Shown here piece after piece: positions 4,193 through 61,144 of a stretch of 64,000 nt of DNA. The translations under genes were made by a program, and so were the position numbers. Position 1 is the first letter of the stretch. The number at the start of each line of letters is the position of its first letter. Origin of the DNA: Bryobacterales bacterium (GTDB lineage: Bacteria > Acidobacteriota > Terriglobia > Bryobacterales > Bryobacteraceae); NCBI GenBank assembly GCA_003166865.1, contig PMUP01000025.1, forward strand, positions 240,094-304,093, given 5' to 3'. The notes beneath the pieces are model-generated. The model had not been told where the DNA came from, did no database searches, and saw nothing but the letters and a program-made list of their open reading frames with translations.

Positions 4193-4198
4193 GCGCTA

Positions 4199-5434: not shown

Positions 5435-5465
5435 GAAGTGCCTCCAATTTCAGTGTAGCCGCGTT

Positions 5466-6668
5466 TTAAGACATTCGGGAAAACAGCGACAGCAGTCCCG
5501 ATAGAGAGCTGCTCTTTTTGCCGAGGGGCTCCGAGCTGCCGGCCAGGCGATCCACCAGCCCAATCATACTCTTGCCGAAGCTGGTGTTGGGCGCCAGCGG
5601 CTTGCCTTCCATGAGCGATTTCTGGATGGCCTCGTAATCGGCCGGCAGGATGTGAAAGATTTCGGTGTGGAGGGCGGTGCCGATTACATCCTTGCTCAGG
5701 CCGGTGTGGCGATCGTAGCGGTTCACGATCAACCGCAGCTTATAGCGAGGGATGTTGTTGGCGTCCAGATAACCAAGCACGCGTTGCACGGCTTGCAGCG
5801 ACGTAAGCTCGTTGGTGGTAACGAGCAGAATCTCGTCGGCCAGCCGCGCTTGGCTCAGGTTCCAGTCGCCATACACTCCGCCCGTATCGAGCACCACCAA
5901 ATCATAGGTGTGGCGGGCGTATTCGATGATGCTACTGGCGTCCTTGAGGTCGCTCATGCCTTCCGTCATCACTTCGGGCGAAAGCAGCACGTCCATGCCT
6001 GGCCGGGTGATGATAACGGCTTTCCACAGATCCGCGTCGATATCTTGCGAGCGCGCCAGCACATCCATGAAGCTGTAGCTGGATTTGATTTTTAGCAGAA
6101 AGGAAAGCGTACCGGCCAGAGGATCAAGATCGGCCAGCAGAATCCGCCTCCCGCCGCGCTTCATTTGGAACGCCAGGTTGCTGGCGATGGTACTAGCGCC
6201 GCAGCCGCCCTTGGCCGGCACAATGCAGTAGACTCTTCCGGGAGTCTTCAAGCGGGTGGGGTGCTGGCGGGCGATCTTCTGAAACGCCGCCTCCACCTGT
6301 TCGGAAGTGAAGGGCTGGATTAGAAAGTCGCTGGCGCCCTGCCGGAGGCAGCGCAGCACCAATTCCGGATCGTTGGCCGAAAGCACGGCGACGATGGGCA
6401 ACTTGGCATCGATTCGCAACAACTCGGGAATGACGGCCAGACCGGCTTCATAGGGTTCCGAGATTTCGATCAGGCACAAGTTGGGAAGTTGCGAGGCCAA
6501 CAAGTCCGCCAACTGGTGGCGCGGCGGGTAGATTTTCAGATCGTGGCCCGAAAAGGTCGGCAAAAGCTTTCTTAAAATAGGAGCTAACTCTCTGACAATC
6601 TTGGGGTTGGGGCAAATGAACAGAGCTTTCCATGCTCCACTCAGTTTGGGGGTCTCAGGCTGCGGCAT
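5466..6668 (-). CDS. CpaE/TadZ-like protein: atypical receiver domain plus ParA/MinD-type P-loop ATPase
   Basis: 400 aa. Deviant Walker A context VPAKGGCGASTIASNLA. The N-terminal REC-like fold lacks the acidic pair and has E where the phospho-Asp is expected (LCLIEISEP). Confidence 0.75.
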   Translation of the reverse strand: MPQPETPKLSGAWKALFICPNPKIVRELAPILRKLLPTFSGHDLKIYPPRHQLADLLASQLPNLCLIEISEPYEAGLAVIPELLRIDAKLPIVAVLSANDPELVLRCLRQGASDFLIQPFTSEQVEAAFQKIARQHPTRLKTPGRVYCIVPAKGGCGASTIASNLAFQMKRGGRRILLADLDPLAGTLSFLLKIKSSYSFMDVLARSQDIDADLWKAVIITRPGMDVLLSPEVMTEGMSDLKDASSIIEYARHTYDLVVLDTGGVYGDWNLSQARLADEILLVTTNELTSLQAVQRVLGYLDANNIPRYKLRLIVNRYDRHTGLSKDVIGTALHTEIFHILPADYEAIQKSLMEGKPLAPNTSFGKSMIGLVDRLAGSSEPLGKKSSSLSGLLSLFSRMS

Positions 6669-6862
6669 CGGCGCGCTACGAGCATCTCCCGCGTGTGGGA
6701 GTCCTACTCAATCAAAATCGGCTAAGGGTGATGATACCATGAGAGCCTTTCTCTTCCTGATCAACTAAACATTCGAACGCACTCACCGATAAGGCTTAGT
6801 TTGGTTCTGAATCAAACTGAGGACCTCATGAGAAGAGCGTACCGTCTGGTAAGAAAATCAAA

Positions 6863-7510
6863 ATGAGCGAAGATCACTCGAAGAAATCCGTGGTCGTGTG
6901 CGACACCCAACCGATCACGGCCGAAGGGCTGAGAAGCCTGCTAGCCTCGGCCGGAGACCTGGAGTTCCTGGCGTCGCTGAATAGCCTGGAAGCGGCAACG
7001 CAGATGGTGGCCATCAGGGCGCCCGACATCGTGATCGTGGACAAGGGGTTCGGCATGCGAGCCGTGCTCGATTGGATCCACGATTTGAAGTTGACGGACG
7101 CCACGCCCGCCATCACCGTATGGGGCGTTTCCATGACGGAGGCCGAGGCGCTACGGCTGCTGCAGGCAGGCGCGCGGGGTATTGTTCGCAAAACAGCGGC
7201 TCTGGAGCCCATTCTGAGCTGCCTCCGCACGGTGGCGTCCGGGCGGAGCTGGATGGAAGATTGCGTGTTCCGCGATTCGATCCGGCAGGAGCGCTATCCC
7301 CGGTCGGAGCTGACGCCGCGCGAGCAACAGGTGCTCGAAATGGTGGAGCAGGGCTTCAAGAACAAAGAGATTGGGCTCGAATTGGGGATCCGGCCCGGTA
7401 CCGTCAAGATCCACCTGAAGCATATCTTCGAAAAGACCGGCGTACGCGGGCGCTACGGCTTAGCCATCAGCGGGCTGAAGGAGCGCGGCCTGGTCTCGAT
7501 GGTCAGTTAA
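6863..7510 (+). CDS. NarL/FixJ-family response regulator (REC plus LuxR-type HTH)
   Basis: 215 aa. Receiver with IVIVDKGF. C-terminal LuxR HTH (LTPREQQVLEMVEQGFKNKEIGLELGIRPGTVKIHLKHIFEKTG). Confidence 0.85.
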   Translation: MSEDHSKKSVVVCDTQPITAEGLRSLLASAGDLEFLASLNSLEAATQMVAIRAPDIVIVDKGFGMRAVLDWIHDLKLTDATPAITVWGVSMTEAEALRLLQAGARGIVRKTAALEPILSCLRTVASGRSWMEDCVFRDSIRQERYPRSELTPREQQVLEMVEQGFKNKEIGLELGIRPGTVKIHLKHIFEKTGVRGRYGLAISGLKERGLVSMVS

Positions 7511-7519
7511 GAGCTGGGG

Positions 7520-8434
7520 TCAGCGGCCGGAGCCTTCGGTCCAGCCGTCGCCGAGGCCGTAAGGGACGGTCACGAACGGCATCGCTTCCACCTCGTGAAT
7601 CTTACCGCCGCGGATACCGAAGGACTCCACGATCATCGCGTTCATCAGCATTCCCGGCGGCGCATCGGGAGCAGCACCCCGGCGCGTTCCATCGTGGACA
7701 AAGAGGCAGAATATGGTGGCTACTCCTTTTTGCTGGTCGATAATGAGCGCGTGCCGTGGCCGGATGTGCTTCATATAAGAGAAAAGCTTCTTGTCGATTT
7801 GCTGGGCGCAGGTAAGCATGCTGGTCTTGAGCTGCTCTTGGCCCTGCGGCGTCTTCGAATCAGGCAAAAAAGGCGCGGGCATCATGCGGCCACCGGGCGG
7901 CGGATTGTTGACGGTTTGGTAGCCGTTCTCGTGGCGCACGCAATCGTCGGCGAACGCCGCGATCTCGCCGTCGTCGCCTTCCAGCGCATCGAAGTAGGAG
8001 TTGGCGGCGTAGGCGAGGACTTCGCGAGAGGTGCGCTCGGCAGTGGGAATATCAGTGACCAGACCGGGGCGCGGCGTGGTCAGCAGCGGAATCGCCGCAT
8101 CGTTGATAGCGCGGTCGTAGAGCTGCTCAATTTCGGAAATGTGCCCGCGATCCACCTTGAGGCGCACGGCCACTAATGCGCTGCGCCCCCCAATCAGAAG
8201 ACGCGCCTGCAATGCCACTTGGCCCGTTACCGGGTCGGCGACGTAAATCCTGAAAGGCGTCGGTTCCACTTTGTTGCGCCAGAGCATGCCCTCGCCGACA
8301 TCCATGCGGCCGGTGTTCTCGGTCATGCGGAGGTCGATCGAAAGCGGCGGCGCGGCTTTGGGGTCGTGCTTGTAGATGGCATTCATGTAGCCGTCCATGA
8401 TGCCGACCAGGCACTCTCGATTGCAATCCTTCAC
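7520..8434 (-). CDS. Hypothetical protein. A possible exported form has its signal peptide in another frame (see findings).
   Basis: 304-aa ORF with coding-like composition and a GTG start at 8434. No family firmly recognised. Confidence 0.5.
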   Translation of the reverse strand: MKDCNRECLVGIMDGYMNAIYKHDPKAAPPLSIDLRMTENTGRMDVGEGMLWRNKVEPTPFRIYVADPVTGQVALQARLLIGGRSALVAVRLKVDRGHISEIEQLYDRAINDAAIPLLTTPRPGLVTDIPTAERTSREVLAYAANSYFDALEGDDGEIAAFADDCVRHENGYQTVNNPPPGGRMMPAPFLPDSKTPQGQEQLKTSMLTCAQQIDKKLFSYMKHIRPRHALIIDQQKGVATIFCLFVHDGTRRGAAPDAPPGMLMNAMIVESFGIRGGKIHEVEAMPFVTVPYGLGDGWTEGSGR

Positions 8435-26943: not shown

Positions 26944-27147
26944 TCAGGGAGCGGTTGTAAATACCCGAATAAGTTCGGCGTCGCCTTCCAGGAAATCGTA
27001 ATCGCCGCCGGCGGCGCGGATCTCGCGTTTGGCATTCTCGCGGCGAATGCGGTTGGATTCCTTCTTGGCCTCCCACTTGTAGCCCCAGTAGGCGCCGTTG
27101 CCGCGCTTCGGGCCGCTGTGTTCGGTCTTTCTGGCTTCGTAGCCCAT
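26944..27147 (-). CDS. Small basic ORF (67 aa) coupled to the ParE-like toxin. Its C-terminus is encoded by a duplicated Nudix 3' end.
   Basis: ATGA overlap with the toxin stop. The last ~17 codons (GDYDFLEGDAELIRVF) lie in the 42-bp repeat shared with the Nudix gene end. Confidence 0.4.
   Translation of the reverse strand: MGYEARKTEHSGPKRGNGAYWGYKWEAKKESNRIRRENAKREIRAAGGDYDFLEGDAELIRVFTTAP
26965..27006. repeat. Direct repeat copy A (42 bp, 3 mismatches versus copy B; 32-bp identical core 26975-27006)
   Basis: ccgaataagttcggcgtcgccttccaggaaatcgtaatcgcc versus ccgaatgaactcggcgtcgccttccaggaaatcgtaatcgcc. Confidence 0.9.
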
Positions 27148-27431
27148 CAGCGGTAAGCCTCTTTGCGGTTGCGTACGGTGTGGATGTGGAGGACGCCCTC
27201 GTTCTCACGGCTCTGGCTGGCATCGTCGCTCTCGCCGCTTTCTTCGGTGAAGCGCACGCGGAGATCGCCGACGCGCAGACGCTTTTCGCCGCCCTGGCCC
27301 TGGAGCGTTTTGACCCGGCCCGCGCCCGTCTCGGCGAGCCGGTGAATGGCGGTGAGAATCTGCATGGCGATCTGTTGCGGGATGGCGCGAATGTCGGCTC
27401 TAGCTTGTTCGGAGAAGACGATCCGTTTCAC
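27147..27431 (-). CDS. Type II toxin, RelE/ParE family
   Basis: 94 aa. MKRIVFSEQARADIRAI...LRVGDLRVRF...VLHIHTVRNRKEAYR pattern. GTG start overlaps the antitoxin stop (GTGA). Confidence 0.8.
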   Translation of the reverse strand: MKRIVFSEQARADIRAIPQQIAMQILTAIHRLAETGAGRVKTLQGQGGEKRLRVGDLRVRFTEESGESDDASQSRENEGVLHIHTVRNRKEAYR

Positions 27432-27700
27432 CCCGGTCCCTTATGGCCGCGGACCTGCTCCATCGCGAGGCCCAGCTCAGCGGCCACTTCCTCCATCGGG
27501 ATGCCCCGGTTGTTTTTGAACCACTCTTTGGACGCGGCCACGGCGCGCTCCTCCTCTTCGGTGACCGGTTCATCATCGATAGGAGCATTGTGGATGCGTG
27601 AGGCCTCGGGACCAGTCATGACTTCGAGCAGCCGAACGACGGCCTCCAACTGACTCGGATCGAGCTGATCGAGCAACTGATGGGCGTGCTGTTTGTCCAT
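27428..27700 (-). CDS. Putative cognate antitoxin
   Basis: 90-aa acidic protein immediately upstream of the toxin and overlapping it. Confidence 0.65.
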   Translation of the reverse strand: MDKQHAHQLLDQLDPSQLEAVVRLLEVMTGPEASRIHNAPIDDEPVTEEEERAVAASKEWFKNNRGIPMEEVAAELGLAMEQVRGHKGPG

Positions 27701-28561: not shown

Positions 28562-29257
28562 TCACAAAATGTTCACCGCCCGAGCCGCTAGCAGCGCCAC
28601 CGTGACCAGCGAAATGCTGGCTTGCACCATCATCATTACCTTGGCCCAGCGCGACAGCACCGGTACATCGGTGGGCGAAAACGCCGTGCTGGTGTTGAAC
28701 GCCAGGAACAGATAGTCCACAAATCCCGGCCGCCAGTTCTTATCGCTGTCCCATGGAGTAATCATTTGGGGAAAAAGGAACGCCCCGTCGTCGTGCGACT
28801 CTCTTCGGTCGCGTTCGTTGGGGCCGCCTGCGTCCAACCGCCAGTACCATGAGGCGAACACCAGAATATTGGCCACCCAAAGACACGCGGCGCCACGCAG
28901 AAGCTCTACCGGCGAATCAGCATGCGAGGGCAAACGATGGATCAACAGACTGAGCGAACCAACCATCGAGGCGGTTATGATGCCCAGCACCATATGACCG
29001 AAAATCCGGTTCAGACGATCCTTGCCGATTTGGTGGGTCACGATGGTCGGTATAAGCAACACCGAAACAACCGCCAGTAGCAGCCACTGCTGCCCGAATC
29101 GCAGCGGCGCCGGCATGACGAAATACAGCCCGCCGGTGGCCAGGAACGCAAGTATCGCCGGCCAGCGAGGTTCGCGTTCCCTGGGCTCGGACCCGGCTGG
29201 TTGGGATAAGGCGTTCGTCTGAGACATATGGGACAATGTACCAAGCCACCTCCCCAT
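28562..29257 (-). CDS. DUF1345-family membrane protein
   Basis: 231 aa. The C-terminal FNTSTAFSPTDV...W motif region is typical of DUF1345. An alternative start is at 29227. Confidence 0.7.
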   Translation of the reverse strand: MGRWLGTLSHMSQTNALSQPAGSEPREREPRWPAILAFLATGGLYFVMPAPLRFGQQWLLLAVVSVLLIPTIVTHQIGKDRLNRIFGHMVLGIITASMVGSLSLLIHRLPSHADSPVELLRGAACLWVANILVFASWYWRLDAGGPNERDRRESHDDGAFLFPQMITPWDSDKNWRPGFVDYLFLAFNTSTAFSPTDVPVLSRWAKVMMMVQASISLVTVALLAARAVNIL

Positions 29258-29506
29258 GAAGGTTGTAGTTCAAAGTTCGTCATTGATCTTTACCGTGCTT
29301 TCGATCATCCTGAACGTGCCGATCACTCGCGTAAAGCGAAAACCGGTGGGCCGGGAAGTGACGCGCAGAGAACCCAGTGCTGCGACCGGCTAGGGGCGGC
29401 GCCGCTTCCTGGCCAAGGCCGACCCGCCGCGGTGGCCGCGACATTAGACACCCAGCGTCAGTCGTACGCTGAACGAGCAGGGTTATTCGATTCAGCACGA
29501 ACAGCC

Positions 29507-32254
29507 ATGGCTATTTCACCTCGATTAGCACTGTCTCGGCCGGATGGCGAAGAGCCATCGAAGAGTTCCCGCGATTGCGTCTACTCCTTCGACCTGCACG
29601 GGAATCTGATCGAAATGAACTCCGCCTTGGCCGAAATCATCGGCTATGATCGCGATAAAGCAGCCCCGTTGAATCTCAGCCAACTGCTCGACCAGGAATC
29701 CTGGCAACGTTCGCGCGAGCAGGTTCTGGCGTTGCTCGGGGGTAGCGGGACCCAGACGCTGGAGCTTACCGCCATCGGAAACGACGGTCAGCGAATCCGG
29801 ATGGAGGTTGTGCGCCGTCTGTTATTTGAGCGTGGCAGGCCGGTGGCGGTTCAGGACACCGGACGTCTCCTCTACGATGCCGCGGAAGAACTTCCCAGCC
29901 TGCTGGGAGAGGCAGAAACAGACTTGCTCCCAAAATCCGAGCCTTTGAACCGCTTCGCTGAGCAGTTGAAGCAATTGCATCGGCTCTCGACCACCAACTA
30001 CGTCACGCTCGAGCAGGCTTTCGAGGACCACTTGCGGACCGGTTGCCAACTGTTTGACCTGCCCATCGGATTGCTTCTGCAAGTGCAAGGAAGCCACGGC
30101 CTGATTCAGGCTTCGTACGGCGCCTCGGACCTCCAACCAGGCGCCACAATTCTGTTGTTGCGGGAAACGCGCGCGCACACCATCGAAGGGCGGCTCAGGA
30201 CCGTGACGGTCTCGGCTAAGGCCTCGCCTGACGGCCAACCGCAGCCCGCGTTCGAGACCTACATTGGCACTCCGGTGTGGCTCGGCGCGGAGCTGTTTGC
30301 AACGCTGAGCTTCTCGTCCCCATACACCGGCGCGGCGCGCGCCTTCACGTCGGCCGATCGAGAGCTGATCGAGCTGATGGCGCGGAGCATCGGACGCGTG
30401 ATTCTGGAGCACAGAATTCAATCCGAGCGCGACCGGCTCCAGAGCCTGGAGAAGAACCGCAACTCGGTGCTCGAGATGGTCGCCGAGAACGAAAGCATCG
30501 AGGCGATCCTGGCGGAAGTAGCGCGTCTGGTGGAGGAGGAGCGCCCGGGAACGCTGTGCTCTTTACTGATTCTCAAGGATGAGGTGCTGGCGTGGGCCTC
30601 GGCGCCCAGCTTCCCGCCGGATGCCATCCGGATCTTCAAACCGTTCCGGGTGCTCAGAGGCACCGCCGCCCTGGCAACCGCTGAGGTGGCGCGTTCCACG
30701 GTTTTCTGGGACGACGTTCGCACTTGTCCGTTCTGGGCCGAGCGAGGGCACTTCGCCGCCCAGATGGGCATTGTATCCTGCCGCTCCACTCCCATTCTTT
30801 CAGCGGATGGTGTTCTGCTTGGAATCCTGGCGCTGCACTATAAAGAGGGCCAGCCGCATGACTACAGCGACACCGAACTGCTGCAAGCGGCCGCCCGTCT
30901 AGCGGCGCGCGCTCTGGAACAGCGAGGCCTCAACGAACGCCTGGAGTTCCAGGCGCGGCATGACTCCCTTACCGGCCTGCCCAACCGCTCCTATTTCATG
31001 GAACTCCTCAATGCGGCTTTAGAGGACGCGGGCCAGCGCTCGGGCTACCTGGCCGTGCTGTTCATCGATCTCGACCGCTTCAAACAGATCAACGATATCC
31101 TCGGCCACGCCATGGGTGACCGGCTGTTGAAAGAAGTAGGCCAGCGCCTGAAGCGGTTGCTGACCGCCGACGATCTGGCCGGCCGCATGGGCGGCGACGA
31201 GTTCATCATTGTTCTTACGCGCCAGCCCGATGAGCAGGCCGTAGCACTGGCATCGCGGGAGTTCCTGATGGCCCTGCGCGCGCCGCACCAGATTGAAGAC
31301 AACGAGCTGTTCGTCACGGCCAGCATCGGCGTCGCCATTTATCCCCGGCATGGCAAGACTGTCGCCGAACTGCTACGCAACGCAGACCTGGCGATGTATC
31401 ACGCCAAGAATAGCGGCAAGAACGAAGTGGAGGTTTTCCGGGCCGAGGACCACGCCGCCAGCCTGGAACGCCTGCGCCTGGAGAACGCGCTGCGCCGCGC
31501 GCTGGAACACCAGGAATTCGAGCTGCTTTATCAGCCCGTGGTCGGCATGAACGGGAAGGTGGAGGGCTTGGAGGCGCTGCTCACCTGGCGGCATCCCATC
31601 TACGGGACCATCTCTCCCAAGCAGTTCATCCCGATCGCCGAGGAAACCGGTCTGATCATCGATATCGGATCGTGGGTGATCCGCAGGGCCTGTCTCGAAG
31701 CTGCCAGTTGGCACAAAGCCGGTCACAGCGCGGCCCGCATTTCGGTCAACGTGTCGGCATTGCAGTTTGAACGGCGCGATTTCGTGGAAACCGTGGCCGA
31801 CGCGCTGGCACTGAGCAATCTGCCGCCCGACCGGCTGGAGCTGGAGCTGACCGAAAGCTACATCATGAAGGATCTCCCGCAAGCGGCCGCGCGCTTCGCC
31901 CAGATCCGGAAGCTTGGCATCAGCATCGCGATAGACGATTTTGGCACCGGCTATTCGTCGCTCAGCTATCTGAACAAGCTGCCCGTGGATTCCCTCAAAA
32001 TCGACCAATCGTTCTTGCGCAACCTGAATGAGCCGGAAGGATCGCTGGCGGTGATCCAGAGCATCGTGCGGATGGCGCACAGCATGAATCTCACGGTGGT
32101 GGCCGAGGGAGTGGAGACGCGCGCGGAGTTGGATCTGGTGCGCGTGCTCGGTTGCGACAAGGTGCAAGGGCACGTGTATGGGCCGGCGCGGCGTCGCGAG
32201 GATGTGGAGGCGTTGCTGGCTGCCCACGATTCGCTGGGTCCGCTGGAGACGTAG
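29507..32254 (+). CDS. PAS-GAF-GAF-GGDEF-EAL signalling protein (c-di-GMP cyclase/phosphodiesterase)
   Basis: GGDEF motif (RMGGDEFIIVL). EAL-domain motifs (EALLTWRH, DDFGTGYSSLSYL). ATG at 29507 is preferred over the track start at 29228. Confidence 0.9.
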   Translation: MAISPRLALSRPDGEEPSKSSRDCVYSFDLHGNLIEMNSALAEIIGYDRDKAAPLNLSQLLDQESWQRSREQVLALLGGSGTQTLELTAIGNDGQRIRMEVVRRLLFERGRPVAVQDTGRLLYDAAEELPSLLGEAETDLLPKSEPLNRFAEQLKQLHRLSTTNYVTLEQAFEDHLRTGCQLFDLPIGLLLQVQGSHGLIQASYGASDLQPGATILLLRETRAHTIEGRLRTVTVSAKASPDGQPQPAFETYIGTPVWLGAELFATLSFSSPYTGAARAFTSADRELIELMARSIGRVILEHRIQSERDRLQSLEKNRNSVLEMVAENESIEAILAEVARLVEEERPGTLCSLLILKDEVLAWASAPSFPPDAIRIFKPFRVLRGTAALATAEVARSTVFWDDVRTCPFWAERGHFAAQMGIVSCRSTPILSADGVLLGILALHYKEGQPHDYSDTELLQAAARLAARALEQRGLNERLEFQARHDSLTGLPNRSYFMELLNAALEDAGQRSGYLAVLFIDLDRFKQINDILGHAMGDRLLKEVGQRLKRLLTADDLAGRMGGDEFIIVLTRQPDEQAVALASREFLMALRAPHQIEDNELFVTASIGVAIYPRHGKTVAELLRNADLAMYHAKNSGKNEVEVFRAEDHAASLERLRLENALRRALEHQEFELLYQPVVGMNGKVEGLEALLTWRHPIYGTISPKQFIPIAEETGLIIDIGSWVIRRACLEAASWHKAGHSAARISVNVSALQFERRDFVETVADALALSNLPPDRLELELTESYIMKDLPQAAARFAQIRKLGISIAIDDFGTGYSSLSYLNKLPVDSLKIDQSFLRNLNEPEGSLAVIQSIVRMAHSMNLTVVAEGVETRAELDLVRVLGCDKVQGHVYGPARRREDVEALLAAHDSLGPLET

Positions 32255-32258
32255 TGGG

Positions 32259-32303
32259 GCGGTCCCCTGGACCGCGGCCGACGCCCCCGTCGGCCTCTGT
32301 TTT
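32259..32303 (+). terminator. Two tandem GC hairpins plus a T-rich tail after the GGDEF-EAL gene
   Basis: First hairpin: gcggtcc-cct-ggaccgc (32259-32275). Second hairpin: ggccgacg-cccc-cgtcggcc (32276-32295), followed by tctgttttgg. Confidence 0.6.
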
Positions 32304-32429
32304 GGATTCGAGGATATACACTTCACAGACCAGAATTGATCAGGAGAATTGTAGCTAGAGAATCTCCTTAGCTTTGCGTTCCTAAAGGGAAGGTTGACGC
32401 GCCATCTGATAATGTATCCATTTCTAGAC

Positions 32430-32447
32430 AACCTATAAATATAGGTT
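32430..32447. promoter_or_regulatory. Perfect 8-bp inverted repeat with 2-nt centre (AACCTATA-AA-TATAGGTT), candidate operator
   Basis: Read directly. It ends 12 nt upstream of the -35 box of the island promoter. Confidence 0.45.
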
Positions 32448-32459
32448 AAAAGGCAACAT

Positions 32460-32487
32460 TTGACAGTTTTAAATATCGAGGTATTAT
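32460..32487 (+). promoter_or_regulatory. Near-consensus sigma-70-type promoter (TTGACA-16 nt-TATTAT)
   Basis: TTGACA at 32460-32465 and TATTAT at 32482-32487. AGGAGA RBS at 32495-32500 and ATG at 32511. Confidence 0.55.
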
Positions 32488-32510
32488 ATGAATTAGGAGA
32501 TAGTATTAGT

Positions 32511-32717
32511 ATGACATTAGACCTGCAAGTGATGCTCGTGAAGACCGAGCTTATCAAAGTTAGAGCAGAGCGCGATGCCGCCGCAAAGGTGTGTGAGAAT
32601 GACACCGAGATTCGTGACGTGATTGCAACGCTCGACCGCATTGTTGAGGAGAAGGAGAGGATATTTCACGACCTGAAGGCCCAACTGCAAGTGAGCGTAC
32701 CAGGGGCGGAGAGATGA
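32511..32717 (+). CDS. Island ORF A: 68-aa acidic, helical/coiled-coil-like protein, unknown function
   Basis: Strong RBS 10 nt upstream. Sequence MTLDLQVMLVKTELIKVRAERDAAAKVCENDTEIRDVIATLDRIVEEKERIFHDLKAQLQ... The stop overlaps the next start (ATGA). Confidence 0.6.
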   Translation: MTLDLQVMLVKTELIKVRAERDAAAKVCENDTEIRDVIATLDRIVEEKERIFHDLKAQLQVSVPGAER

Positions 32718-33163
32718 CTCGTGAAGAAAAAGAGCAGAAAATTCAGGAGCCGGATGGCAAAGTCTTTGGGAATCAGAAGGTAAGAATTACGGAGTTCCAT
32801 CGCTGCAAGCAGTATGAGTGCTTAGCCTCGGTCGACAACGTAATGACTTCCACTGGCCACCTTAAGTTTTTTGACCTCGTGCCCGTCTCAGAGGGACTCC
32901 CTTCCTTTGAAGCAAGATGGGATGAGAAAGACGAATCGGTCGACATCGACATCAGGGGCGTGTCAGAACAGGACAAGAACCGGTTCAAGCACGGAAAAGG
33001 TGGATATAGCGGTCATTGGTCACGCCGAACGCCGACTGCCGACACGATCTATACCTATGAGGTGTGCATTTGGATCCCACGGGGGAGGGTATTTGAAGGG
33101 ACTGTAGACTTCACGGTTGTTCGAAGACAAGGCATACCTGGGAAGGCAAGTATCATAAACTGA
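32714..33163 (+). CDS. Island ORF B: 149-aa beta-rich protein, unknown function
   Basis: GGAGAG RBS-like sequence upstream. Codon usage is atypical for this genome (AGA, AGG, ATA, GTA, TTA). No motif recognised. Confidence 0.65.
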   Translation: MTREEKEQKIQEPDGKVFGNQKVRITEFHRCKQYECLASVDNVMTSTGHLKFFDLVPVSEGLPSFEARWDEKDESVDIDIRGVSEQDKNRFKHGKGGYSGHWSRRTPTADTIYTYEVCIWIPRGRVFEGTVDFTVVRRQGIPGKASIIN

Positions 33164-33265
33164 GAGCGTTTTGGTCTGTTACGTATGCTGGTGCTCCGCT
33201 TTGAGCATGTTGCCAGAGCCGGACCGGGGGGCTGGCGCGGACGCGGGCGTCCGCCCCACTCCATT

Positions 33266-35650
33266 TCATTCCACACGCAGCGACAACAGGCCGGCCAGCT
33301 CCTTGAATTCTGCGCTCCACCGGGATTCGCCCGGGTAGACTCTCTGCAGGATTTCGTAGCAGCGATTTTGCACCTGCCATAAGATCAACGGAAATGGCAG
33401 CGAGCAGGCCGCAGCGACAGTCTCGCGGAACCTGGCCAGGCGCGGCAAATCCTTGGGATCCTCCAGATACCGCTCCGCGCCTTTTTCGATATTGCGGCGC
33501 AGAGTAATCTCCAACCCGGTTTGATCCATTACGATCTCGGCGATCCGAATCTCTTCCAGTAGCCCCTGAATGATCGCCAGGTCGAGCTCCGGCGCCGCCA
33601 GCGCTTGCCGCAGTAAGCCGTTCAACGCCACTTCCGCGGTGGCTTTCAGTTCGCTGGGAATCGGCACGCCGCAGTCGCTCAGGAAACGCAGCAGCGGAGC
33701 TTGTTCCTCGTACATCTGGCGATAGACGGCCGAGGAGTGTTCCACCGTGGATTCGAGCGCTTCGGCCAGCACCTTGCGTTGTTCTTCGCGGAACAGATTC
33801 TTGAGCGAATACATGCGGCCGCCAAAGCCCTCGTCCAGGCAGCGGATAGTGGCCGCCAGATCCGAACGGCTGAAGGCTTCGCGCGTCGACTTGCCGAGCT
33901 CGCGGTAGGCGTCCTCGCTCCCGAACACGCCCACGCCTCCATGTAAATTGTGGTCGCCGAAATGGAGCACGCCGAAAATCAGCATCTCGGAGTCCTGCGT
34001 GATCTCCGACGTGAAGCGCGCCTTGCCAAAGGCCAGCCGCAGCTTGCCCGAGCGCTTCAGACGATAGTCCTTGTTCTCCACCGAATAGGAGTAAATGCGC
34101 GTGCTATCGGGGTAGCTCTCAAACAAGGAATTCATGGCGTAGTGCGCGCCCAGCTTCACCAAGTCCACGCGGGCCGGCTTGACCAGCGTTTCAAAGATAC
34201 GCGCGCCGTCGGCGTGAGCTGGAAGGTTGCTCTTGGCAAGCGCGAGTTTCCGCACGAAGCCCGCTTCGATTGCCTCCCCGAAAAGTTCGCCGGCCAGCTC
34301 CGCCACGCGGCCGGCGTACTGGATCACTTGCACCGTCTCGATGCCCGAGAGCTCGTCGAAAAACCAGCCGCAACTGGTGTACATCAGCAGCGTGTGACGC
34401 TGCATCTCCAGCAGCTTCCAGACGCTGACGCGCTCGCTCCGCTGGAGGTTCTTGCGCCGGAAATTGGCCGCCGCGAAGCGTTCCTTGCTGGCTGGCGACC
34501 GGTCTAGAATGACGTGAATATAGTTGTTCCGCGCCGCCCACGGATCCTTGAAGTAGCGCGCCGCCATTTTTTCATAGCGTGGTGCGATTTCGTCGCGCAA
34601 CCAATCCAGCGCCGCGCGCAGGGGACCCCGCCATTCCTGATTCCAGTCCGGATGCCCGCCGGAATTGCAGCCGCAGTTGGCGGTCCAACGTCCCACGCCG
34701 TGCACACAGCTCCAAGCAGTGTTCTCCAGGATCTCCACATGCTGTTCGGGAGGATGCTGCTCGAGAAACTCGGCATAGTTGGTGACCTTCGCCAGGCCGC
34801 TCGATTCGATGTGGTCGAGCGCGTACGCCAGCGCCATGTCGCCGAACGGGTGATGGTGTCCGTAAGTTTCGCCATCGGTTGCGATATGCGCCAGTTGCGG
34901 ACCTTCGCGCTCATCCGAAAGCGCCTCCAGGAGCCGGCTGGCGAAGCGCTCGCCATTGTCCAGCAAGCGCTCAAACGCGACCGCCTGCGAAACCGGCCCG
35001 TCATAAAAGAACAAGTCGATGGAACGTCCCGATGCCAGCTTCTGCCGGTAAACGCGCGCTGGATCGATCCGCTGGCCGGTGACGTCGGTTCCGTCGACGG
35101 ATTTGGCCTGCGACGGCGCCAGGATGGTGAACTTGATCCGATGCTGTGCCAGCAGGTCCAGCGTCTCCAGGTCGACAGCCGTTTCCGGAAGCCACATGCC
35201 TTCCGGATCGCGCCCGAAGCGAAAGCGGAAGTCCTGGATGCCCCAAATCACTTGCGTCAGTTTGTCGCGCGCATTGGCGAGCGGCATGATCATGTGGTTG
35301 TAGCATTGCGCCAGCGCCGATCCATGGCCCGAAAAGCGTTGCGCGCTCACGCGGTCGGCGTCCACGATGGACTGGTAAGTTTCCGGAGCCTTGTCCCTCA
35401 TCCAGGACAACAAGGTGGGCCCGAAGTTAAAACTGATGCCGGCGTAGTTGTTCACGATCTTTGCGATGCGGCTCTCAGGGTCCAAGATCCGGGCCGCGCT
35501 GTTGGGCGCGTAGCATTCCGCCGTCACGCGCTCGTTCCAATCGTGATACGGCGCGGCGGAATCCTGGAGTTCGATCGCCTCCAGCCATGGGTTTTCGCGC
35601 GGCGGCTGATAGAAGTGACCGTGAATGCAAAGGTATCGGTTTTGGTTCAT
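33266..35650 (-). CDS. Glycoside hydrolase family 57 protein with C-terminal DUF3536-like extension
   Basis: 794 aa. The N-terminus LCIHGHFYQPPRENPW is a GH57 hallmark. Confidence 0.9.
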   Translation of the reverse strand: MNQNRYLCIHGHFYQPPRENPWLEAIELQDSAAPYHDWNERVTAECYAPNSAARILDPESRIAKIVNNYAGISFNFGPTLLSWMRDKAPETYQSIVDADRVSAQRFSGHGSALAQCYNHMIMPLANARDKLTQVIWGIQDFRFRFGRDPEGMWLPETAVDLETLDLLAQHRIKFTILAPSQAKSVDGTDVTGQRIDPARVYRQKLASGRSIDLFFYDGPVSQAVAFERLLDNGERFASRLLEALSDEREGPQLAHIATDGETYGHHHPFGDMALAYALDHIESSGLAKVTNYAEFLEQHPPEQHVEILENTAWSCVHGVGRWTANCGCNSGGHPDWNQEWRGPLRAALDWLRDEIAPRYEKMAARYFKDPWAARNNYIHVILDRSPASKERFAAANFRRKNLQRSERVSVWKLLEMQRHTLLMYTSCGWFFDELSGIETVQVIQYAGRVAELAGELFGEAIEAGFVRKLALAKSNLPAHADGARIFETLVKPARVDLVKLGAHYAMNSLFESYPDSTRIYSYSVENKDYRLKRSGKLRLAFGKARFTSEITQDSEMLIFGVLHFGDHNLHGGVGVFGSEDAYRELGKSTREAFSRSDLAATIRCLDEGFGGRMYSLKNLFREEQRKVLAEALESTVEHSSAVYRQMYEEQAPLLRFLSDCGVPIPSELKATAEVALNGLLRQALAAPELDLAIIQGLLEEIRIAEIVMDQTGLEITLRRNIEKGAERYLEDPKDLPRLARFRETVAAACSLPFPLILWQVQNRCYEILQRVYPGESRWSAEFKELAGLLSLRVE

Positions 35651-41728: not shown

Positions 41729-44275
41729 ATGCCCTTTCAGATTCAACCTGTTAAGGAATTCCTAGTCCGCCCCGCTCTGCCGCCAGCTCTCTCCCGGATG
41801 AGTGACCTCGCCAATAATCTCCTCTGGAGCTGGGATCACACCGTCCGATCGCTGTTCCGGCGGCTGGATTCGGCGCTTTGGAAGAATTGCCGCCACAATC
41901 CTGTTTTGATGCTGGGCCGCGTTCCGCAGGCGACGCTGGAGCGTGCGGCCGGCGATCCTCGCTTTCTCGGCGCGTATCGGAAAGCCTGCGAACGCTATTC
42001 CAGCTATCTGGAGCGCTCCGAACCAAGCGACGATCGGCTGATCGCCTATTTTTCCATGGAATACGGCATGGTGGAATGCATGCCGATCTACGGCGGCGGC
42101 CTCGGCGTGCTTTCGGGCGATCACTTGAAGGCCGCCAGTGACGGCGATGTTCCCTTGGTTGCCGTGGGTCTGCTGTACCAGAAGGGCTATCTGCAGCAAG
42201 CCCTTAACCCAGATGGCTGGCAGCAAGAGCGCAACCCCGTCAACGACTTCTATACTCTTCCTGTCCGGCCCGTGTGTGACGAAGATGGCCGCGAGATGAC
42301 GGTGCAGGTGAAACTACCCAGCGGTGCGGTAGTGATCAAGATCTGGCAAATTGCAGTAGGGCGTGTAAAACTCTACCTGCTCGATACGAACACTGCGGAA
42401 AACACTGTCGAACACCGCGAGATCACCGATCAACTCTACGGCGGCGACATTCTCACCCGGATCCGGCAAGAAATTGTCTTGGGGATTGGCGGCCTGCGCG
42501 CCCTCGACCGGCTCGGCCTGAAGCCCACCGTGTGGCACATGAACGAAGGTCACTCGGCCTTCCTGGCGATCGAACGCATGCGGCGCCTCATCAAAGAGTA
42601 CAAGCTGTCCTTTGAGGAGGCGCTGGAGGCTTGCCGTTCCAATAGTGTCTTCACTACTCATACTTCCGTCCCCGCCGGGATCGACCTGTTCGAGCCGGGT
42701 CTTCTGTACGAATACTTCGGCGAGTATTGCGACGAAGCCGGCATACCGTTTGAGAAGTTCTTGGCGCTGGGCCGGTTCCGTCCCGAGAATCATCAAGCAC
42801 CATTCTCGATGGCTATCTCCGCCATTCAGACTTCCGCCTTTCGCAACGCGGTTAGCAGCCTGCATCGCCTGGTTTCGCAAGAAATGTGGCAGGAGTTGTG
42901 GCCCAAGCTGCCGGTATGGGAAGTTCCGATCACATCGGTCACCAATGGCGTGCACTTGCTGACCTGGCTGAACGGCGATCTGGCGCTGCTCTACGATCAG
43001 TATCTGCAGCCGGATTGGCGGGAGCGCAACGCCGATCCCAGAATCTGGGATTTGGTCGAAGACATGCCCTCGCAGGAGCTGTGGGAGGCGCATCGCCGCC
43101 GGAAGCGCTACCTGGTGGCCTTCGTGCGCGAGCGCGTGGTGGCCGCGGCCATGGCCCGCAAAGCCTCCTCCGCCGAACAGCGCCGTCTGGCCGAGGTGCT
43201 CGACCCCGATACTTTCACCATCGGTTTCGCGCGCCGCTTTGCCACCTACAAGCGCGCCACCCTGCTATTCCGCGATGTCGAGCGGCTCAAGCGGCTCTTG
43301 ACCAATCCCGACCGCCCAGTCCAGATTGTCATTGCCGGAAAGGCGCACCCCCGCGATCTGCCGGGCAAGACGCTCATCCGCGAAATCGTCCAGCTTTCGC
43401 GCGCGCCCGAAATCTCCAAGCACATCGTGTTTGTCGAAGACTACAGCATTGAAGTGGCCCGCGAGATGGTGCAGGGAGTCGACCTTTGGCTGAACACCCC
43501 CCGCCGCGGCGAGGAAGCTTGTGGAACCAGCGGCATGAAAGCGGGGATCAACGGAGTGCTCAATCTGAGCATCTTGGACGGCTGGTTCGACGAAGCTTAC
43601 GAAATTTCGGGTGGGTGGGCTATTGGAGACCGGGAGCAGTACTCCCAGGACCAGGACGAAACCCACGCCCGCGCCATCTACTCCATATTGGAAAACGAAA
43701 TCGTGCCGATGTACTATCAGGATCGCGAGAGTGGCGTTCCGGTGGAATGGATTCGCCGCGTGAAGCAGTCCTTGAAGCATCTCAGCCACCAGTTCAACTC
43801 CGGGCGGATGGTCGGCGAGTACCTGTCGCAATTGTACGAACCGGCCCACCAGGCCTGTCTGGAAATCTCGCACGATTGCTTCCAGCCGGCCCGCCAGCGA
43901 GCGAATTGGAACCTGCGGGTGCAGCAGGTGTGGGATAAGGTCGGATTTGTGGCGATTGGCCCGGGCCCCGAGGTTTCGGTCTTGGCGGGCGTTCCCATTC
44001 CGGTTCGCGCCGTTGTGAATCTGGCCGGCCTTTCGCCCGGCGACGTGCGCGTGGAGGCGGTGGTGGGACGCATTGGCGTGAATGGAAACCTGGAGGAGAC
44101 TCAGGTGATGAGTCTTCCGGCGGTGGAGCAAAACGGTAACGACTGCGTATTTCTCAAGGAGTTTGTGCCTCATCAAACCGGCAGGCTCGGTTATTCGCTC
44201 CGAATCAGCCCCAATCACTACGATGATCCCCTGACACGGCCTTGTAATTCTTTATTGAAATGGAGCGGGGAGTAA
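41729..44275 (+). CDS. glgP: Alpha-glucan phosphorylase (GT35, alpha-glucan family with DUF3417-type N-terminus)
   Basis: 848 aa. PLP-lysine region EACGTSGMKAGINGVLNLSILDGWF. Confidence 0.9.
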   Translation: MPFQIQPVKEFLVRPALPPALSRMSDLANNLLWSWDHTVRSLFRRLDSALWKNCRHNPVLMLGRVPQATLERAAGDPRFLGAYRKACERYSSYLERSEPSDDRLIAYFSMEYGMVECMPIYGGGLGVLSGDHLKAASDGDVPLVAVGLLYQKGYLQQALNPDGWQQERNPVNDFYTLPVRPVCDEDGREMTVQVKLPSGAVVIKIWQIAVGRVKLYLLDTNTAENTVEHREITDQLYGGDILTRIRQEIVLGIGGLRALDRLGLKPTVWHMNEGHSAFLAIERMRRLIKEYKLSFEEALEACRSNSVFTTHTSVPAGIDLFEPGLLYEYFGEYCDEAGIPFEKFLALGRFRPENHQAPFSMAISAIQTSAFRNAVSSLHRLVSQEMWQELWPKLPVWEVPITSVTNGVHLLTWLNGDLALLYDQYLQPDWRERNADPRIWDLVEDMPSQELWEAHRRRKRYLVAFVRERVVAAAMARKASSAEQRRLAEVLDPDTFTIGFARRFATYKRATLLFRDVERLKRLLTNPDRPVQIVIAGKAHPRDLPGKTLIREIVQLSRAPEISKHIVFVEDYSIEVAREMVQGVDLWLNTPRRGEEACGTSGMKAGINGVLNLSILDGWFDEAYEISGGWAIGDREQYSQDQDETHARAIYSILENEIVPMYYQDRESGVPVEWIRRVKQSLKHLSHQFNSGRMVGEYLSQLYEPAHQACLEISHDCFQPARQRANWNLRVQQVWDKVGFVAIGPGPEVSVLAGVPIPVRAVVNLAGLSPGDVRVEAVVGRIGVNGNLEETQVMSLPAVEQNGNDCVFLKEFVPHQTGRLGYSLRISPNHYDDPLTRPCNSLLKWSGE

Positions 44276-44572
44276 GCGGATTCGCGTAAAGCTTTGTGGT
44301 GTAACGGATACCGCCTGTGGATCGCGGTTAGATTTCAGTAGCTTCTGCGAGTGATTCGTGGTACATACTATGTAGGCGCAAGCGGAACAATGTCTTTTCC
44401 AGCTTCAGCCGGTTCCCGCAGAAATCCTCCGCATTGACCCTCAAGCATGTCGGCACAGGGCGGGACGCCCCACAAACGTATAGAGAAAAGCGAAGCACTA
44501 AAAAGTCTCGATTACATCCGATCAAACCGGTTAGTGGTGCGAGATCTCAAGTTCTAGGAATCGATTTAACAC

Positions 44573-45058
44573 ATGGACGACGACCGTAAGTATAGACAGC
44601 GGGGCTACATGGATTCCAATGGCGGATCCAGCGATCGCCGGCTCCCCGACCGGTCCAAGCCTTCCGGCCCCCGGCCGCCTCTGGACGTCACCGGCCCCCG
44701 GCTCCCCCGCCTGCTCCAAAGCGTGGTGGCCGCGCGCTGTTTTAACTGCTCCACCGCGCTTTCGCCGGACGCGGATTGGAAAGGCAAGTGTCCCAAATGC
44801 GGCGTAGCCTTGCATTGCTGCAAGCAATGCGCGCACTTTGAACCTTCCACTCGCTTTCAGTGCCTGAAGCCGATTCTGGCGCGGATCGCGGGCAAGGATC
44901 AAGCCAACGAGTGCGACCTGTTTAAACCGCGCGTTACGGTGGCCCGCGACTCTGCGCCCGCCAACAACCATGCGGCTGGCGCTCAGCAACAACAAGCCCC
45001 GCGAACGCCGACCGACGCCCGCGCGGCATTCGACAGTTTATTCAAGAAGCCCGAGTAA
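44573..45058 (+). CDS. Cys-rich (zinc-ribbon-like) hypothetical protein
   Basis: 161 aa. CFNC...CPKC...CCKQC pattern. Its 3' end overlaps the convergent accD by 17 nt. Confidence 0.55.
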   Translation: MDDDRKYRQRGYMDSNGGSSDRRLPDRSKPSGPRPPLDVTGPRLPRLLQSVVAARCFNCSTALSPDADWKGKCPKCGVALHCCKQCAHFEPSTRFQCLKPILARIAGKDQANECDLFKPRVTVARDSAPANNHAAGAQQQQAPRTPTDARAAFDSLFKKPE

Positions 45059-53908: not shown

Positions 53909-54701
53909 CAGTTTACTCTGGGCCTTTCTGAGCCCTCTTGGCGCCGGCGATCCTGGGCCGCCCATCGGCAGCCGATTTCCGGAGCGCGGTCTAAAGAGCA
54001 CGCTCGGACCGAAGGGCGCGTTGATTTTGGCTTACCAGTCCGCGGAGCCGGAGCCTTCCGAGATCCAACAGAATCAGGAAGCATTCCGAAAACTTGGGTT
54101 AGGAATCGCCGCGGTCCCCTCGAAGATTCACCCCGGATGGTACGTCCTGGATGCTCGTGGCATCATCATGTCTAAGTATTTCGACGACCACGCCCGTTAT
54201 ACGCCGGCCGCGATTTTGGTTCACCAGTTCGGATGGACGCCGCCCGAACCGGGCACCGAAGTCGAAGGCAAGCAGCTCAGCGCGAAGGCCGGCGCAAGCA
54301 ACGCCACGGTCGCGCCGGGACAGCGCGTCGCTTTGATGCTGGACGTCGATCTCAATCCCAACATGCACGTGTATGCGCCCGGCATCGGCGGCGGCTACAT
54401 CTCGATCGACTGGAAAATGCAAGATTCCCCGGCCGCAAACGTGCACCCGGCGATTTTCCCGCGCTCCGAGAAGCTGTATCTCAAGGCCATCGCCGAAACC
54501 GTGCCCGCCTATCGCGGCCATTTCCGCCTGACGCGCGACATCACCATTCCTCAAGAGGACCAGCTCCGGCCGGCGATCGACGCCTCCGGACGCTTTACGG
54601 TACCCGGATCGCTTCGCTATCAAGCTTGCGACGACCGCGTTTGCTACATCCCGCAAGAGCTGCATCTCACATGGGTGTTTCAAGCGGAAAATAAACCCTA
54701 G
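53886..54701 (+). CDS. Exported protein with DsbD-N/DsbC(pfam11412)-like domain
   Basis: Signal peptide. ...NMHVYAPG...ISIDW... and a C-terminal YQACDDRVCYIP motif. Confidence 0.55.
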   Translation: MKRRLTIISLLWAFLSPLGAGDPGPPIGSRFPERGLKSTLGPKGALILAYQSAEPEPSEIQQNQEAFRKLGLGIAAVPSKIHPGWYVLDARGIIMSKYFDDHARYTPAAILVHQFGWTPPEPGTEVEGKQLSAKAGASNATVAPGQRVALMLDVDLNPNMHVYAPGIGGGYISIDWKMQDSPAANVHPAIFPRSEKLYLKAIAETVPAYRGHFRLTRDITIPQEDQLRPAIDASGRFTVPGSLRYQACDDRVCYIPQELHLTWVFQAENKP

Positions 54702-54800
54702 GCACTCCGTCTTAGTACTCCCCTAGGACCAAATTAGTACTATGAGTTCTTGGGCTGCGCTGTGCTCTTTGCTAGGGTAGGGAAGGAGATCACACGCGGA

Positions 54801-56165
54801 ATGAAAGTATCAATCATTGGAACTGGTTATGTCGGCTTGACCACGGGAGTGTGCCTGGGCTTCCTGGGGCACAAAGTCACTTGTATTGACACCGATGAAA
54901 AGAAAATCGCTCTCTTGCGCTCTGGTAAGACGCCGATCTACGAGCCGTTCCTCACTGAGTTGATGGCGGCCGCGCAGCCGAACCTCCAGTTCTGCACCGA
55001 ATACGCAGGCGCGGTCAAGAACGCCGATGTCATCTTTATCGCCGTGGGAACGCCTCCTTCTCCCGATGGCAGCCCGGACTTGCGGTACCTCAGCGAAGCC
55101 GCGCGAGGAATCGGCAAGCACTATGATGGGGATTTCCTGGTGGTTGTGAACAAGTCCACCGTGCCGATCGGCAGCGGCAACTGGGTAGGATCCCTGGTGC
55201 GCGAATCTTTCGAGCAGCAGCATGGCCACAAGGCCAACGGGCACTTTTCAGTGGCGTCCAATCCCGAGTTCCTGCGGGAAGGCTCGGCGCTGCACGACAG
55301 TCTCTATCCGGACCGCGTGGTCATCGGTTCCGACAACAACCGCGCGCTCGAGGTGCTGTACTCGTTGTATCGTCCCATTCTCGATCAGACGTTCGCTCCT
55401 CCGCCTTACCTGCCGCGGCCGGAAGGTGTTGGCGCGGTCCCTCTGATTTCCACCGACTTGGCCTCTGCTGAACTCATCAAGTATGCCGCCAACGCGTTTC
55501 TCGCCACCAAGATCTCCTACATCAATGAAATCGGCCAACTGGCCGAGAAGGTTGGCGCGGACATCGCGCAAGTGGCCAAAGGAATCGGGCTGGACGCTCG
55601 CATCGGAACGCGCTTCCTGCAAGCTGGCATCGGCTGGGGCGGCTCCTGTTTTGGGAAGGACACCTCGGCCTTGGTGGCAACGGCGCGGGAATACAGCCTG
55701 GGGATGCCCATCGTGGAAGCCGCGCGCGAAGTCAATCGCCGCCAACGCGATCGCGTCGTCGAGAAGCTGCTGGGCGAACTGAAGATTCTCAAAGGCCGCA
55801 CCATCGGGCTGCTGGGCCTGGCTTTCAAGCCCAATACCGACGATCTGCGCGAAGCGCCGGCCATCGACATCGCCCGCAAGCTGCTGGAGCGCGGTTGTAA
55901 GGTGAAGGTCCACGATCCGGTGGCGCTGGAACGTTTTGAGCGCGAATATCCGGACCTGGCCGTGGTGTGCTGCGAATCGCCGGAGGACACCGCCGACGAC
56001 GTGGACGCACTGGTTCTGGTGACCGAATGGCAGGAATACCGCGAGCTGAACTGGGAAGTGATTGCCAGCCGCATGCGAACGCCGCTCATCCTGGATGGAC
56101 GCAACGCGCTGGATCGGTCGCGCCTGGAGCGGTTCGGCTTCCGCTACTTGGGAATCGCGGGCTAA
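54801..56165 (+). CDS. ugd: UDP-glucose 6-dehydrogenase
   Basis: GGAAGGAGA RBS. MKVSIIGTGYVGLTTG Rossmann motif. Catalytic region GWGGSCFGKD. Confidence 0.95.
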   Translation: MKVSIIGTGYVGLTTGVCLGFLGHKVTCIDTDEKKIALLRSGKTPIYEPFLTELMAAAQPNLQFCTEYAGAVKNADVIFIAVGTPPSPDGSPDLRYLSEAARGIGKHYDGDFLVVVNKSTVPIGSGNWVGSLVRESFEQQHGHKANGHFSVASNPEFLREGSALHDSLYPDRVVIGSDNNRALEVLYSLYRPILDQTFAPPPYLPRPEGVGAVPLISTDLASAELIKYAANAFLATKISYINEIGQLAEKVGADIAQVAKGIGLDARIGTRFLQAGIGWGGSCFGKDTSALVATAREYSLGMPIVEAAREVNRRQRDRVVEKLLGELKILKGRTIGLLGLAFKPNTDDLREAPAIDIARKLLERGCKVKVHDPVALERFEREYPDLAVVCCESPEDTADDVDALVLVTEWQEYRELNWEVIASRMRTPLILDGRNALDRSRLERFGFRYLGIAG

Positions 56166-60841: not shown

Positions 60842-61144
60842 ATGGCAGTAGCTAAGTTGACGCAGACGCAAGTAATCAAGGAACTGGCCGGAGCCGTCGG
60901 TACCACCACGAAGGTAGCCAAGCAGTTCGTTACGAGTTTCTCTGAATTGGCCGTTCGCGAGACCAAGAAGAACGGTCTGTTTGTGATCCCCGGCATTGGC
61001 CGCCTGGTGCGCGTGGACCGCAAGGCGCGCCTCGGCCGCAATCCAGCCACCGGCGAGACCATCAAGATTCCCGCCAAGAAAGTAGTGAAGTTCAGGGTGG
61101 CGAAAGCCGTGAAGGACGCGATCGTACCTCCCAAGAAGAAGTAG
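60842..61144 (+). CDS. hup: HU/IHF-family DNA-binding protein
   Basis: 100 aa. ...GLFVIPGIGRLVRVDRKARLGRNPATGETIKIPAKKVVKFR... is the typical HU beta-arm. Confidence 0.9.
   Translation: MAVAKLTQTQVIKELAGAVGTTTKVAKQFVTSFSELAVRETKKNGLFVIPGIGRLVRVDRKARLGRNPATGETIKIPAKKVVKFRVAKAVKDAIVPPKKK

Follow-up and report, generated by a model that had tools for sequence, protein, structure and literature searches.

A 64,000-nucleotide stretch of contig PMUP01000025.1 from a Bryobacterales bacterium (the window) carries two small, translationally coupled open reading frames (ORFs), here called A and B, which a preliminary description made from the sequence had put forward as a candidate novel toxin-antitoxin (TA), abortive-infection or defense pair. 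What had been observed there was confirmed, and the interpretation was partly supported. The layout of a TA pair is present, but the defining tests of a type II TA system, on family, fold, DNA-binding and co-occurrence, fail. Since these tests fail and B is mostly a solitary gene elsewhere, the best explanation of the locus is that B is mobile cargo, a self-sufficient gene from an undescribed family with a probable role in conflict, and that A is a lineage-specific add-on; we favor this reading tentatively. The novelty lies in the B protein family, which is without sequence or structural relative in the libraries searched, and not in a demonstrated new system. The two reading frames are:

32511–32717, + strand: ORF A, ATG start, TGA stop, 68 aa
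32714–33163, + strand: ORF B, ATG start, TGA stop, 149 aa

They overlap in the ATGA at 32714–32717, which is common to both; the pair and its coupling, as first described, were borne out by the ORF list and the sequence.

B is a member of an undescribed family of beta-rich proteins. An exhaustive hidden Markov model search recovered 373 cluster representatives at E ≤ 1e-3 (206 at E ≤ 1e-10), mostly of 140–180 aa, and because of these 373 homologous representatives B is more than a chance ORF. The clusters are tiny and mostly found on short contigs, and a word-index search with B returned four close relatives only. Conservation was determined from an alignment of 122 family members, where R68 and G100 are invariant and Y34, G48, P63, F65, W69, D70, D77, D79, F91 and H101 each occur in 90% or more of the sequences. 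The resulting family motif is P63-x-F65-x-x-R68-W69-D70 ... D77-x-D79 ... G97-Y98-x-G100-H101. Window B holds every invariant and nearly invariant residue and scores 170 bits against the family profile. The basic glycine-rich loop pointed out earlier is the best-conserved loop of the family (G97-Y98-x-G100-H101-H102), but the protein as a whole is neutral, with an isoelectric point (pI) of 6.9.

Scans of Pfam, NCBIfam, PADLOC and PHROGs, which also gave some coiled-coil noise, upheld the statement that neither A nor B belongs to a known family. For the 122 family members PHROGs, PADLOC and NCBIfam were without a match, Pfam returned two weak hits only (DUF5763, of unknown function), and the B family profile had no match among PDB sequences. 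PADLOC-DB 2.0 contained no component matching A, B or the 122 relatives of B.

An AlphaFold 2 model of B based on the 122-sequence alignment was confident (predicted local distance difference test score, pLDDT, 92.0; predicted template modeling score 0.83) and superseded a model from 5 sequences which was unusable (pLDDT 48.6). B had been expected to be all-beta; the model is mostly beta with 8 strands, but also contains two short helices. Foldseek comparison of this fold with the PDB and BFVD found no relative (best E 0.08–0.09, template modeling (TM) score ≤ 0.30), in keeping with the earlier remark that the predicted fold does not resemble the common toxin classes. In the strand register of the model R68 and D70 (strand 64–70) and D77 and D79 (paired strand 75–81) should lie on one side, near the G-H-H loop, and we infer that R68, D70, D77, D79 and H101, with H102 in most members, may form a metal or phosphate-ligand site, either binding or catalytic.

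Several assignments were tried and set aside. Relationship to ATP synthase epsilon was suggested by a PDB sequence profile match at E = 0.22 only. A PilZ-like cyclic di-GMP binder, prompted by the GGDEF-EAL neighbor, and HAD, DHH, HNH and PD-(D/E)xK readings of the motif were each rejected for mismatch in spacing or fold class and had no Foldseek support. P0003 (106 aa) was rejected as a truncated B, being a contig-end artefact. Some family members (P0143, P0153, P0099, P0009, P0028 and P0048) have a basic amphipathic C-terminal tail (e.g. ...LVRLWRRMTDRFFKSF), and P0011 has a CxxC...CxC zinc-ribbon-like tail instead of the basic one; window B has neither.

The surroundings of B were compared in nine independent contexts, the window lineage included:

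Window lineage: housekeeping flanks
L012/L013: B 57% identical; no upstream ORF; degraded tyrosine-integrase gene 190 nt downstream
L099: B 39% identical; low-GC contig; TrwB/TraD-type type IV coupling protein
L100: housekeeping genes; upstream an unrelated 203-aa protein, probably secreted
L102: UPF0175/PIN TA pair and rve transposase
L103: reverse transcriptase, transposase, HigBA, DUF4760 and Toprim-topoisomerase-helicase
L104: HTH_17 and B as one contiguous ORF, between argJ and folD
L106-108: 74-aa ORF, then B, then N6_N4 methyltransferase (nuclease-like tail), with short gaps
L109/L110: PhdYeFM, BrnT/BrnA, PIN, Cas6 fragment, Endonuclease_7, integrase and GmrSD

The neighborhood analysis of homologues proposed in the preliminary description thus found mobile, TA or restriction(-modification) genes within a few kb of B in 6/9 contexts, a small sample counted without a background model, but no neighbor shared between contexts in an all-against-all BLAST of the neighboring proteins. 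In the high-GC hosts of L100, L102 and L103 the GC content of the B homologues is below that of the flanking DNA. The gene for the HTH_17+B fusion stands alone and has a promoter-like site to itself. One representative (P0148), on a 1.5-kb contig of which the DNA was not readable, has B joined to Phage_Mu_F.

Some details of these loci may be recorded separately. The B homologue of L109 stands in a dense TA/defense island (1–7561) that includes GmrSD_N, and a 145-aa protein there, divergent from B, looks ribbon-helix-helix (RHH)-like by eye. The trio in L106 (3590–5946; also L107 and L108) is operon-like, with a basic 74-aa ORF, a methyltransferase of 533 aa and gaps of 24 and 31 nt. The DUF4760 protein upstream of B in L103 (7257–7775) resembles a 220-aa protein encoded two genes upstream of B in L099 (426–1088) at 31% over 45 aa (E = 0.1), a similarity which is probably due to chance.

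According to the explanation we favor, B would be a soluble, beta-rich protein of ~150 aa and the conserved functional component of the locus. Its family would travel across bacteria as a usually solitary cargo gene with its own promoter, often in integrative/conjugative elements and in TA- or restriction-rich islands. As the family often sits in mobile, TA- or restriction-rich DNA, the most likely role of B would be in conflict between mobile elements, phages and hosts. A would at most modulate B, as a neutralizer or assembly partner, and would not be the conserved half of a two-gene system. A bolder proposal, to which we give rather little credence, is that B founds a new superfamily with a new fold, whose invariant Arg/Asp/Asp/Asp/His site has a new activity, and that it works as a one-gene conflict module to which unrelated controllers are added in each lineage. 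B could then be, for example, a small metal-dependent hydrolase with nucleic acid or a nucleotide signal as its substrate, used in defense, anti-defense or addiction, and its controllers would be the helical A here and the fused HTH_17, the 74-aa ORF or the RHH-like neighbor elsewhere.

ORF A is helical by composition with a moderate, coiled-coil-like heptad pattern. It had been called acidic, which holds, but mildly only (pI 5.07, net charge −3). There was no Pfam, NCBIfam, PADLOC, PHROG or PDB match to A, its best domain match being DUF5930 at 15.8 bits versus a cut-off of 27, and the family scans detected no RHH, helix-turn-helix (HTH), AbrB or Phd domain, which agrees with the earlier view that A is without a DNA-binding motif. 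When public data were searched for homologues the word index returned A alone, and a profile built from three A variants found no match outside the window lineage among all fetched loci. A is missing upstream of the 57%-identical B homologue of L012/L013, where DNA and translated similarity to the islet is limited to the B gene, and it is absent from all eight other B contexts. The idea of a conserved two-gene module had to be abandoned on these results, A being present in one lineage only and missing beside every other B homologue examined.

Codon-position substitutions in A are even ([3,3,3] versus L014 and [10,9,11] versus L011), and the ratio of nonsynonymous to synonymous divergence (dN/dS) is 0.5–1.0 with no signature of purifying selection, whereas the flanking genes show a strong third-position excess and dN/dS of 0.06–0.20. 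Nothing shows selection on the A protein sequence. Three diverged lineages all retain A as an open frame, together with its start codon, Shine-Dalgarno sequence and ATGA coupling. As judged from sequence comparison, A is best read as a lineage-specific ORFan add-on to B, possibly a young leader ORF tied to it by translational coupling alone, and an interaction between the two proteins can be inferred at most.

The two ORFs lie in an islet which differs in composition from its surroundings, with a GC content of 37–52% against 60–65%:

32300–33200, no strand: low-GC islet, ~0.9 kb, between convergent GGDEF-EAL and GH57 genes
29228–32254, + strand: GAF-GGDEF-EAL gene, left flank
33266–35650, − strand: GH57 glycoside hydrolase gene, right flank

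GC content is 0.365–0.39 at 32300–32600 and 0.49–0.53 over the ORFs versus 0.56–0.72 in the flanks, and the islet is the deepest low-GC patch of the whole 64-kb window; the foreign composition reported earlier (GC 0.365–0.53 against that of the flanks) is therefore real. In the nearest relative, L017, the orthologues of the GGDEF-EAL gene (51% identity) and GH57 (67%) are convergent with their stop codons 3 bp apart, and a B homologue was found in 0/80 GH57 loci from other species. For these two reasons we consider the ~0.9 kb as shown to be an insertion, and take the locus to be a small islet that was acquired horizontally. The islet itself lacks mobility genes and the window flanks are housekeeping genes. 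The window GH57 protein is nearest to Terriglobia and Acidobacteriota metagenome-assembled genomes, with a best identity of 67%. Identical A and B proteins at the same locus were present on 10/10 contigs examined, of 24 read that carry A. The contigs with the locus come from several peat and wetland metagenomes, always with the same GAF-GGDEF-EAL and GH57 flanks.

Candidate regulatory sites and the borders of the islet are as follows:

32495–32500, + strand: Shine-Dalgarno AGGAGA for ORF A, 10 nt before the A start, from a reading of the sequence; kept in L014
32460–32487, + strand: sigma-70-like promoter TTGACA-16 nt-TATTAT, 11/12 consensus positions
32430–32447, no strand: palindrome AACCTATA-AA-TATAGGTT, perfect 8+8, candidate regulator site
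32276–32295, + strand: terminator-like GC-rich hairpin and T-run (8-pair stem, 7 GC pairs, then TCTGTTTTGG), left border of the islet
33207–33258, no strand: GC-rich hairpins separating the B and GH57 stop codons (12-nt arms, 92% complementary), right border of the islet

The private promoter with an adjacent palindrome was found as described. The promoter is the sole site above 9/12 in a 2-kb promoter scan, and in the diverged strain L014 its −10 hexamer is unchanged and its −35 hexamer is TTGAGA. The palindrome is situated 12 nt upstream of the −35 hexamer, not over the promoter; it is identical in L014 and has no second copy in the window at up to 3 mismatches (0 expected). The left hairpin forms the terminator-like end of the upstream GGDEF-EAL gene and the GC drop begins directly after it. 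The hairpins on the right are also terminator-like, possibly bidirectional, and fold no better than shuffles (z = −0.44). No known RNA was detected in the islet by Rfam. A 16-nt repeat pair (32320/33169, 81% complementary) considered as terminal inverted repeats of the islet was taken as chance because it is weaker in L014. From these sites it appears that A and B are probably transcribed on one messenger from their own sigma-70-type promoter, for which a start close to 32494 is predicted.

Compared with L014, the islet (32311–33265), non-coding DNA included, is 4–8% diverged versus 21–23% at third codon positions of the flanks, and the synonymous divergence is 0.05–0.11 in the islet against 0.35–0.41 in both flanking genes. 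This low divergence suggests that strains have recently exchanged the islet, or that the assemblies are chimeras of strains; constraint acting on all of the islet is a possible cause.

A number of results weigh against B as a mobile, conflict-related cargo gene. The family was not found by tblastn (B and family consensus) in 72,556 plasmids and 50,697 phages, and a scan of IMG/VR with a DNA motif of 79/122 members (65%) yielded one chance hit and no true hit; because of this lack of matches in plasmids, phages and IMG/VR the link of B to recognized mobile elements is not direct. GTDB genomes gave no match either, using patterns from close relatives of B only. The function of B is read from context only and nine contexts are a small sample, in which L100, L104 and the window locus have housekeeping flanks. 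The absence of a structural relative refers to the PDB and BFVD only, and that the conserved residues cluster in space was concluded from the strand register rather than from coordinates. Window-lineage B is weakly constrained, with dN/dS of 0.33–0.46 versus 0.06–0.20 in the flanks, and in L014 and L015, which come from two independent metagenomes, B has a nonsense allele (CAG>TAG at codon 11; 908–910 in L014) with A intact. The window clade also has W102 where 82% of family members have H, and Y113 where 61% have R; the ancestral activity may, on this alignment, have been altered or lost in the clade, and the window copy of B may be decaying.

We think it improbable that A and B are a true type II TA or abortive-infection pair with B as a new toxin, A as its labile, acidic, co-translated neutralizer and the palindrome as the site of autoregulation. 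The small upstream gene, ATGA overlap and private promoter with palindrome have the layout expected of such a pair, A is mildly acidic, and the nonsense allele of B beside an intact A resembles toxin inactivation. Possible partners elsewhere are varied, namely the 74-aa ORF 24 nt upstream in L106, the fused HTH_17 in L104 and the divergent, by-eye RHH-like protein in L109, which recalls the partner swapping of TA families. B homologues do occur often in mobile or defense/TA-rich DNA, but A and B are not conserved as a module. No homologue of A was found beyond its own lineage and A is missing beside the 57%-identical B and at all other B loci, it has no RHH, HTH, AbrB or Phd domain, and it shows no purifying selection. 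In four to five or more of the nine contexts B is without a plausible partner, a lack that would not be expected of an obligate toxin, and an obligate-toxin reading fits poorly because B homologues are mostly solitary genes. B is also neutral rather than basic, unlike any known toxin fold in the PDB and BFVD by Foldseek and without a PADLOC match, and the palindrome lies upstream of the −35 hexamer instead of over the promoter. About as likely as the TA pair is that the islet is a decaying, functionless remnant of transfer, in which B, functional once elsewhere, now drifts and A would be a leader ORF that is present by chance or arose de novo. Relaxed constraint on B, the apparent neutrality of A, the nonsense allele in two independent metagenomes, the substitutions at positions 102 and 113, conserved elsewhere, and the want of mobility genes in the islet are all consistent with this. 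Drift is countered by a dN/dS for B that is still <0.5 with all strictly conserved residues kept, by the identity of both proteins on 10/10 contigs from several peat samples, by an islet less diverged than the neutral sites of its flanks, and by L014, where the −10 hexamer, Shine-Dalgarno sequence, palindrome and ATGA overlap are all kept.

Two explanations remain. B could be the ligand-sensing or oligomerization domain of a regulator whose free-standing form acts with a DNA-binding partner, an arrangement suggested by the solitary HTH_17+B single ORF with its own promoter-like site and by the conserved polar cluster, which could be a ligand pocket; we consider it quite improbable, as this is the one HTH_17 fusion among 150 representatives listed, most B members are without a DNA-binding neighbor and A is without a DNA-binding motif. 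Least probable is that B derives from a phage virion-associated protein injected with the DNA. MuF proteins are known to have effector domains fused to them, and P0148 joins the B domain to the Phage_Mu_F head-morphogenesis domain, but this is a single fusion on a 1.5-kb contig with unreadable DNA. Cultured phages, PHROGs, BFVD and IMG/VR gave no match, and at none of the loci is B close to phage genes. Taken against these alternatives, a self-sufficient B cargo gene with A as a local addition is the explanation we prefer.

Other parts of the window also deserve mention. Further low-GC patches are present at 6601–7000, 44101–44600 (mostly intergenic), 54601–54900 and 60.6–61.6 kb, the last of which encodes a 100-aa protein (60842–61144, + strand) that resembles HU/IHF by eye and follows a RecA-like ORF. 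Three small ORFs overlap at 26944–27700 (− strand), some 5 kb upstream of A-B. The middle one, of 94 aa (27147–27431, − strand), has a full-length, borderline match to ParE_toxin (22.8 bits versus a cut-off of 23) and is preceded by a 90-aa ORF (27428–27700, − strand) with no Pfam match; these genes are probably a canonical ParDE/RelBE-type TA pair.

Should B prove an effector, it would bring a new fold, and in all probability a new activity as well, to the small mobile genes with which bacteria and their parasites fight one another, from a source (soil Acidobacteriota and other uncultured lineages) that is barely covered by defense catalogs. Should it be merely an orphan, the well-defined 'dark-matter' families increase by one, for which an alignment, a motif and a confident model now exist. 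In either case a textbook TA-like layout can form around a self-sufficient cargo gene by way of a lineage-specific leader ORF, and A-B is a caution for the prediction of TA systems from layout.

Among known systems, the N-terminal beta-sandwich of ATP synthase epsilon, hot-dog thioesterases and lipocalin-like nitrophorins are small beta-rich domains like B, and epsilon has in addition a local strand-turn-strand sequence pattern in common with it, but the matches are non-significant (sequence E 0.22; Foldseek E 0.09–0.7, TM 0.13–0.29) and there is no real similarity. MuF-fused polymorphic toxin/effector proteins occur in temperate phages, and one B family member is fused to Phage_Mu_F; it differs from them in its order, since B precedes MuF where in those proteins the effector follows MuF, it is one case only and unverified, and phage collections are otherwise devoid of the family. 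The type II TA systems ParDE, RelBE and HigBA are closest in layout, with two small co-oriented genes overlapping by 4 nt (ATGA), the first of them smaller and more acidic, a private promoter with a nearby palindrome and foreign composition, and B homologues are found in TA-rich islands. Unlike in those systems, neither protein matches the family or fold of a toxin or antitoxin, A lacks a DNA-binding domain, is limited to one lineage and has no detectable constraint, B is not basic and is mostly solitary elsewhere, and the genes do not co-occur across homologous loci. From the single-gene cargo of defense islands and integrative/conjugative elements B differs in having no PADLOC 2.0 model match and no anti-phage phenotype on record, and the window copy is surrounded by housekeeping genes and lacks a mobility gene. 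B is like such cargo in being solitary, with its own promoter, GC below that of its flanks and a patchy distribution, and in having integrase, transposase, type IV secretion system coupling protein, restriction-modification, GmrSD or TA neighbors in 6/9 contexts.
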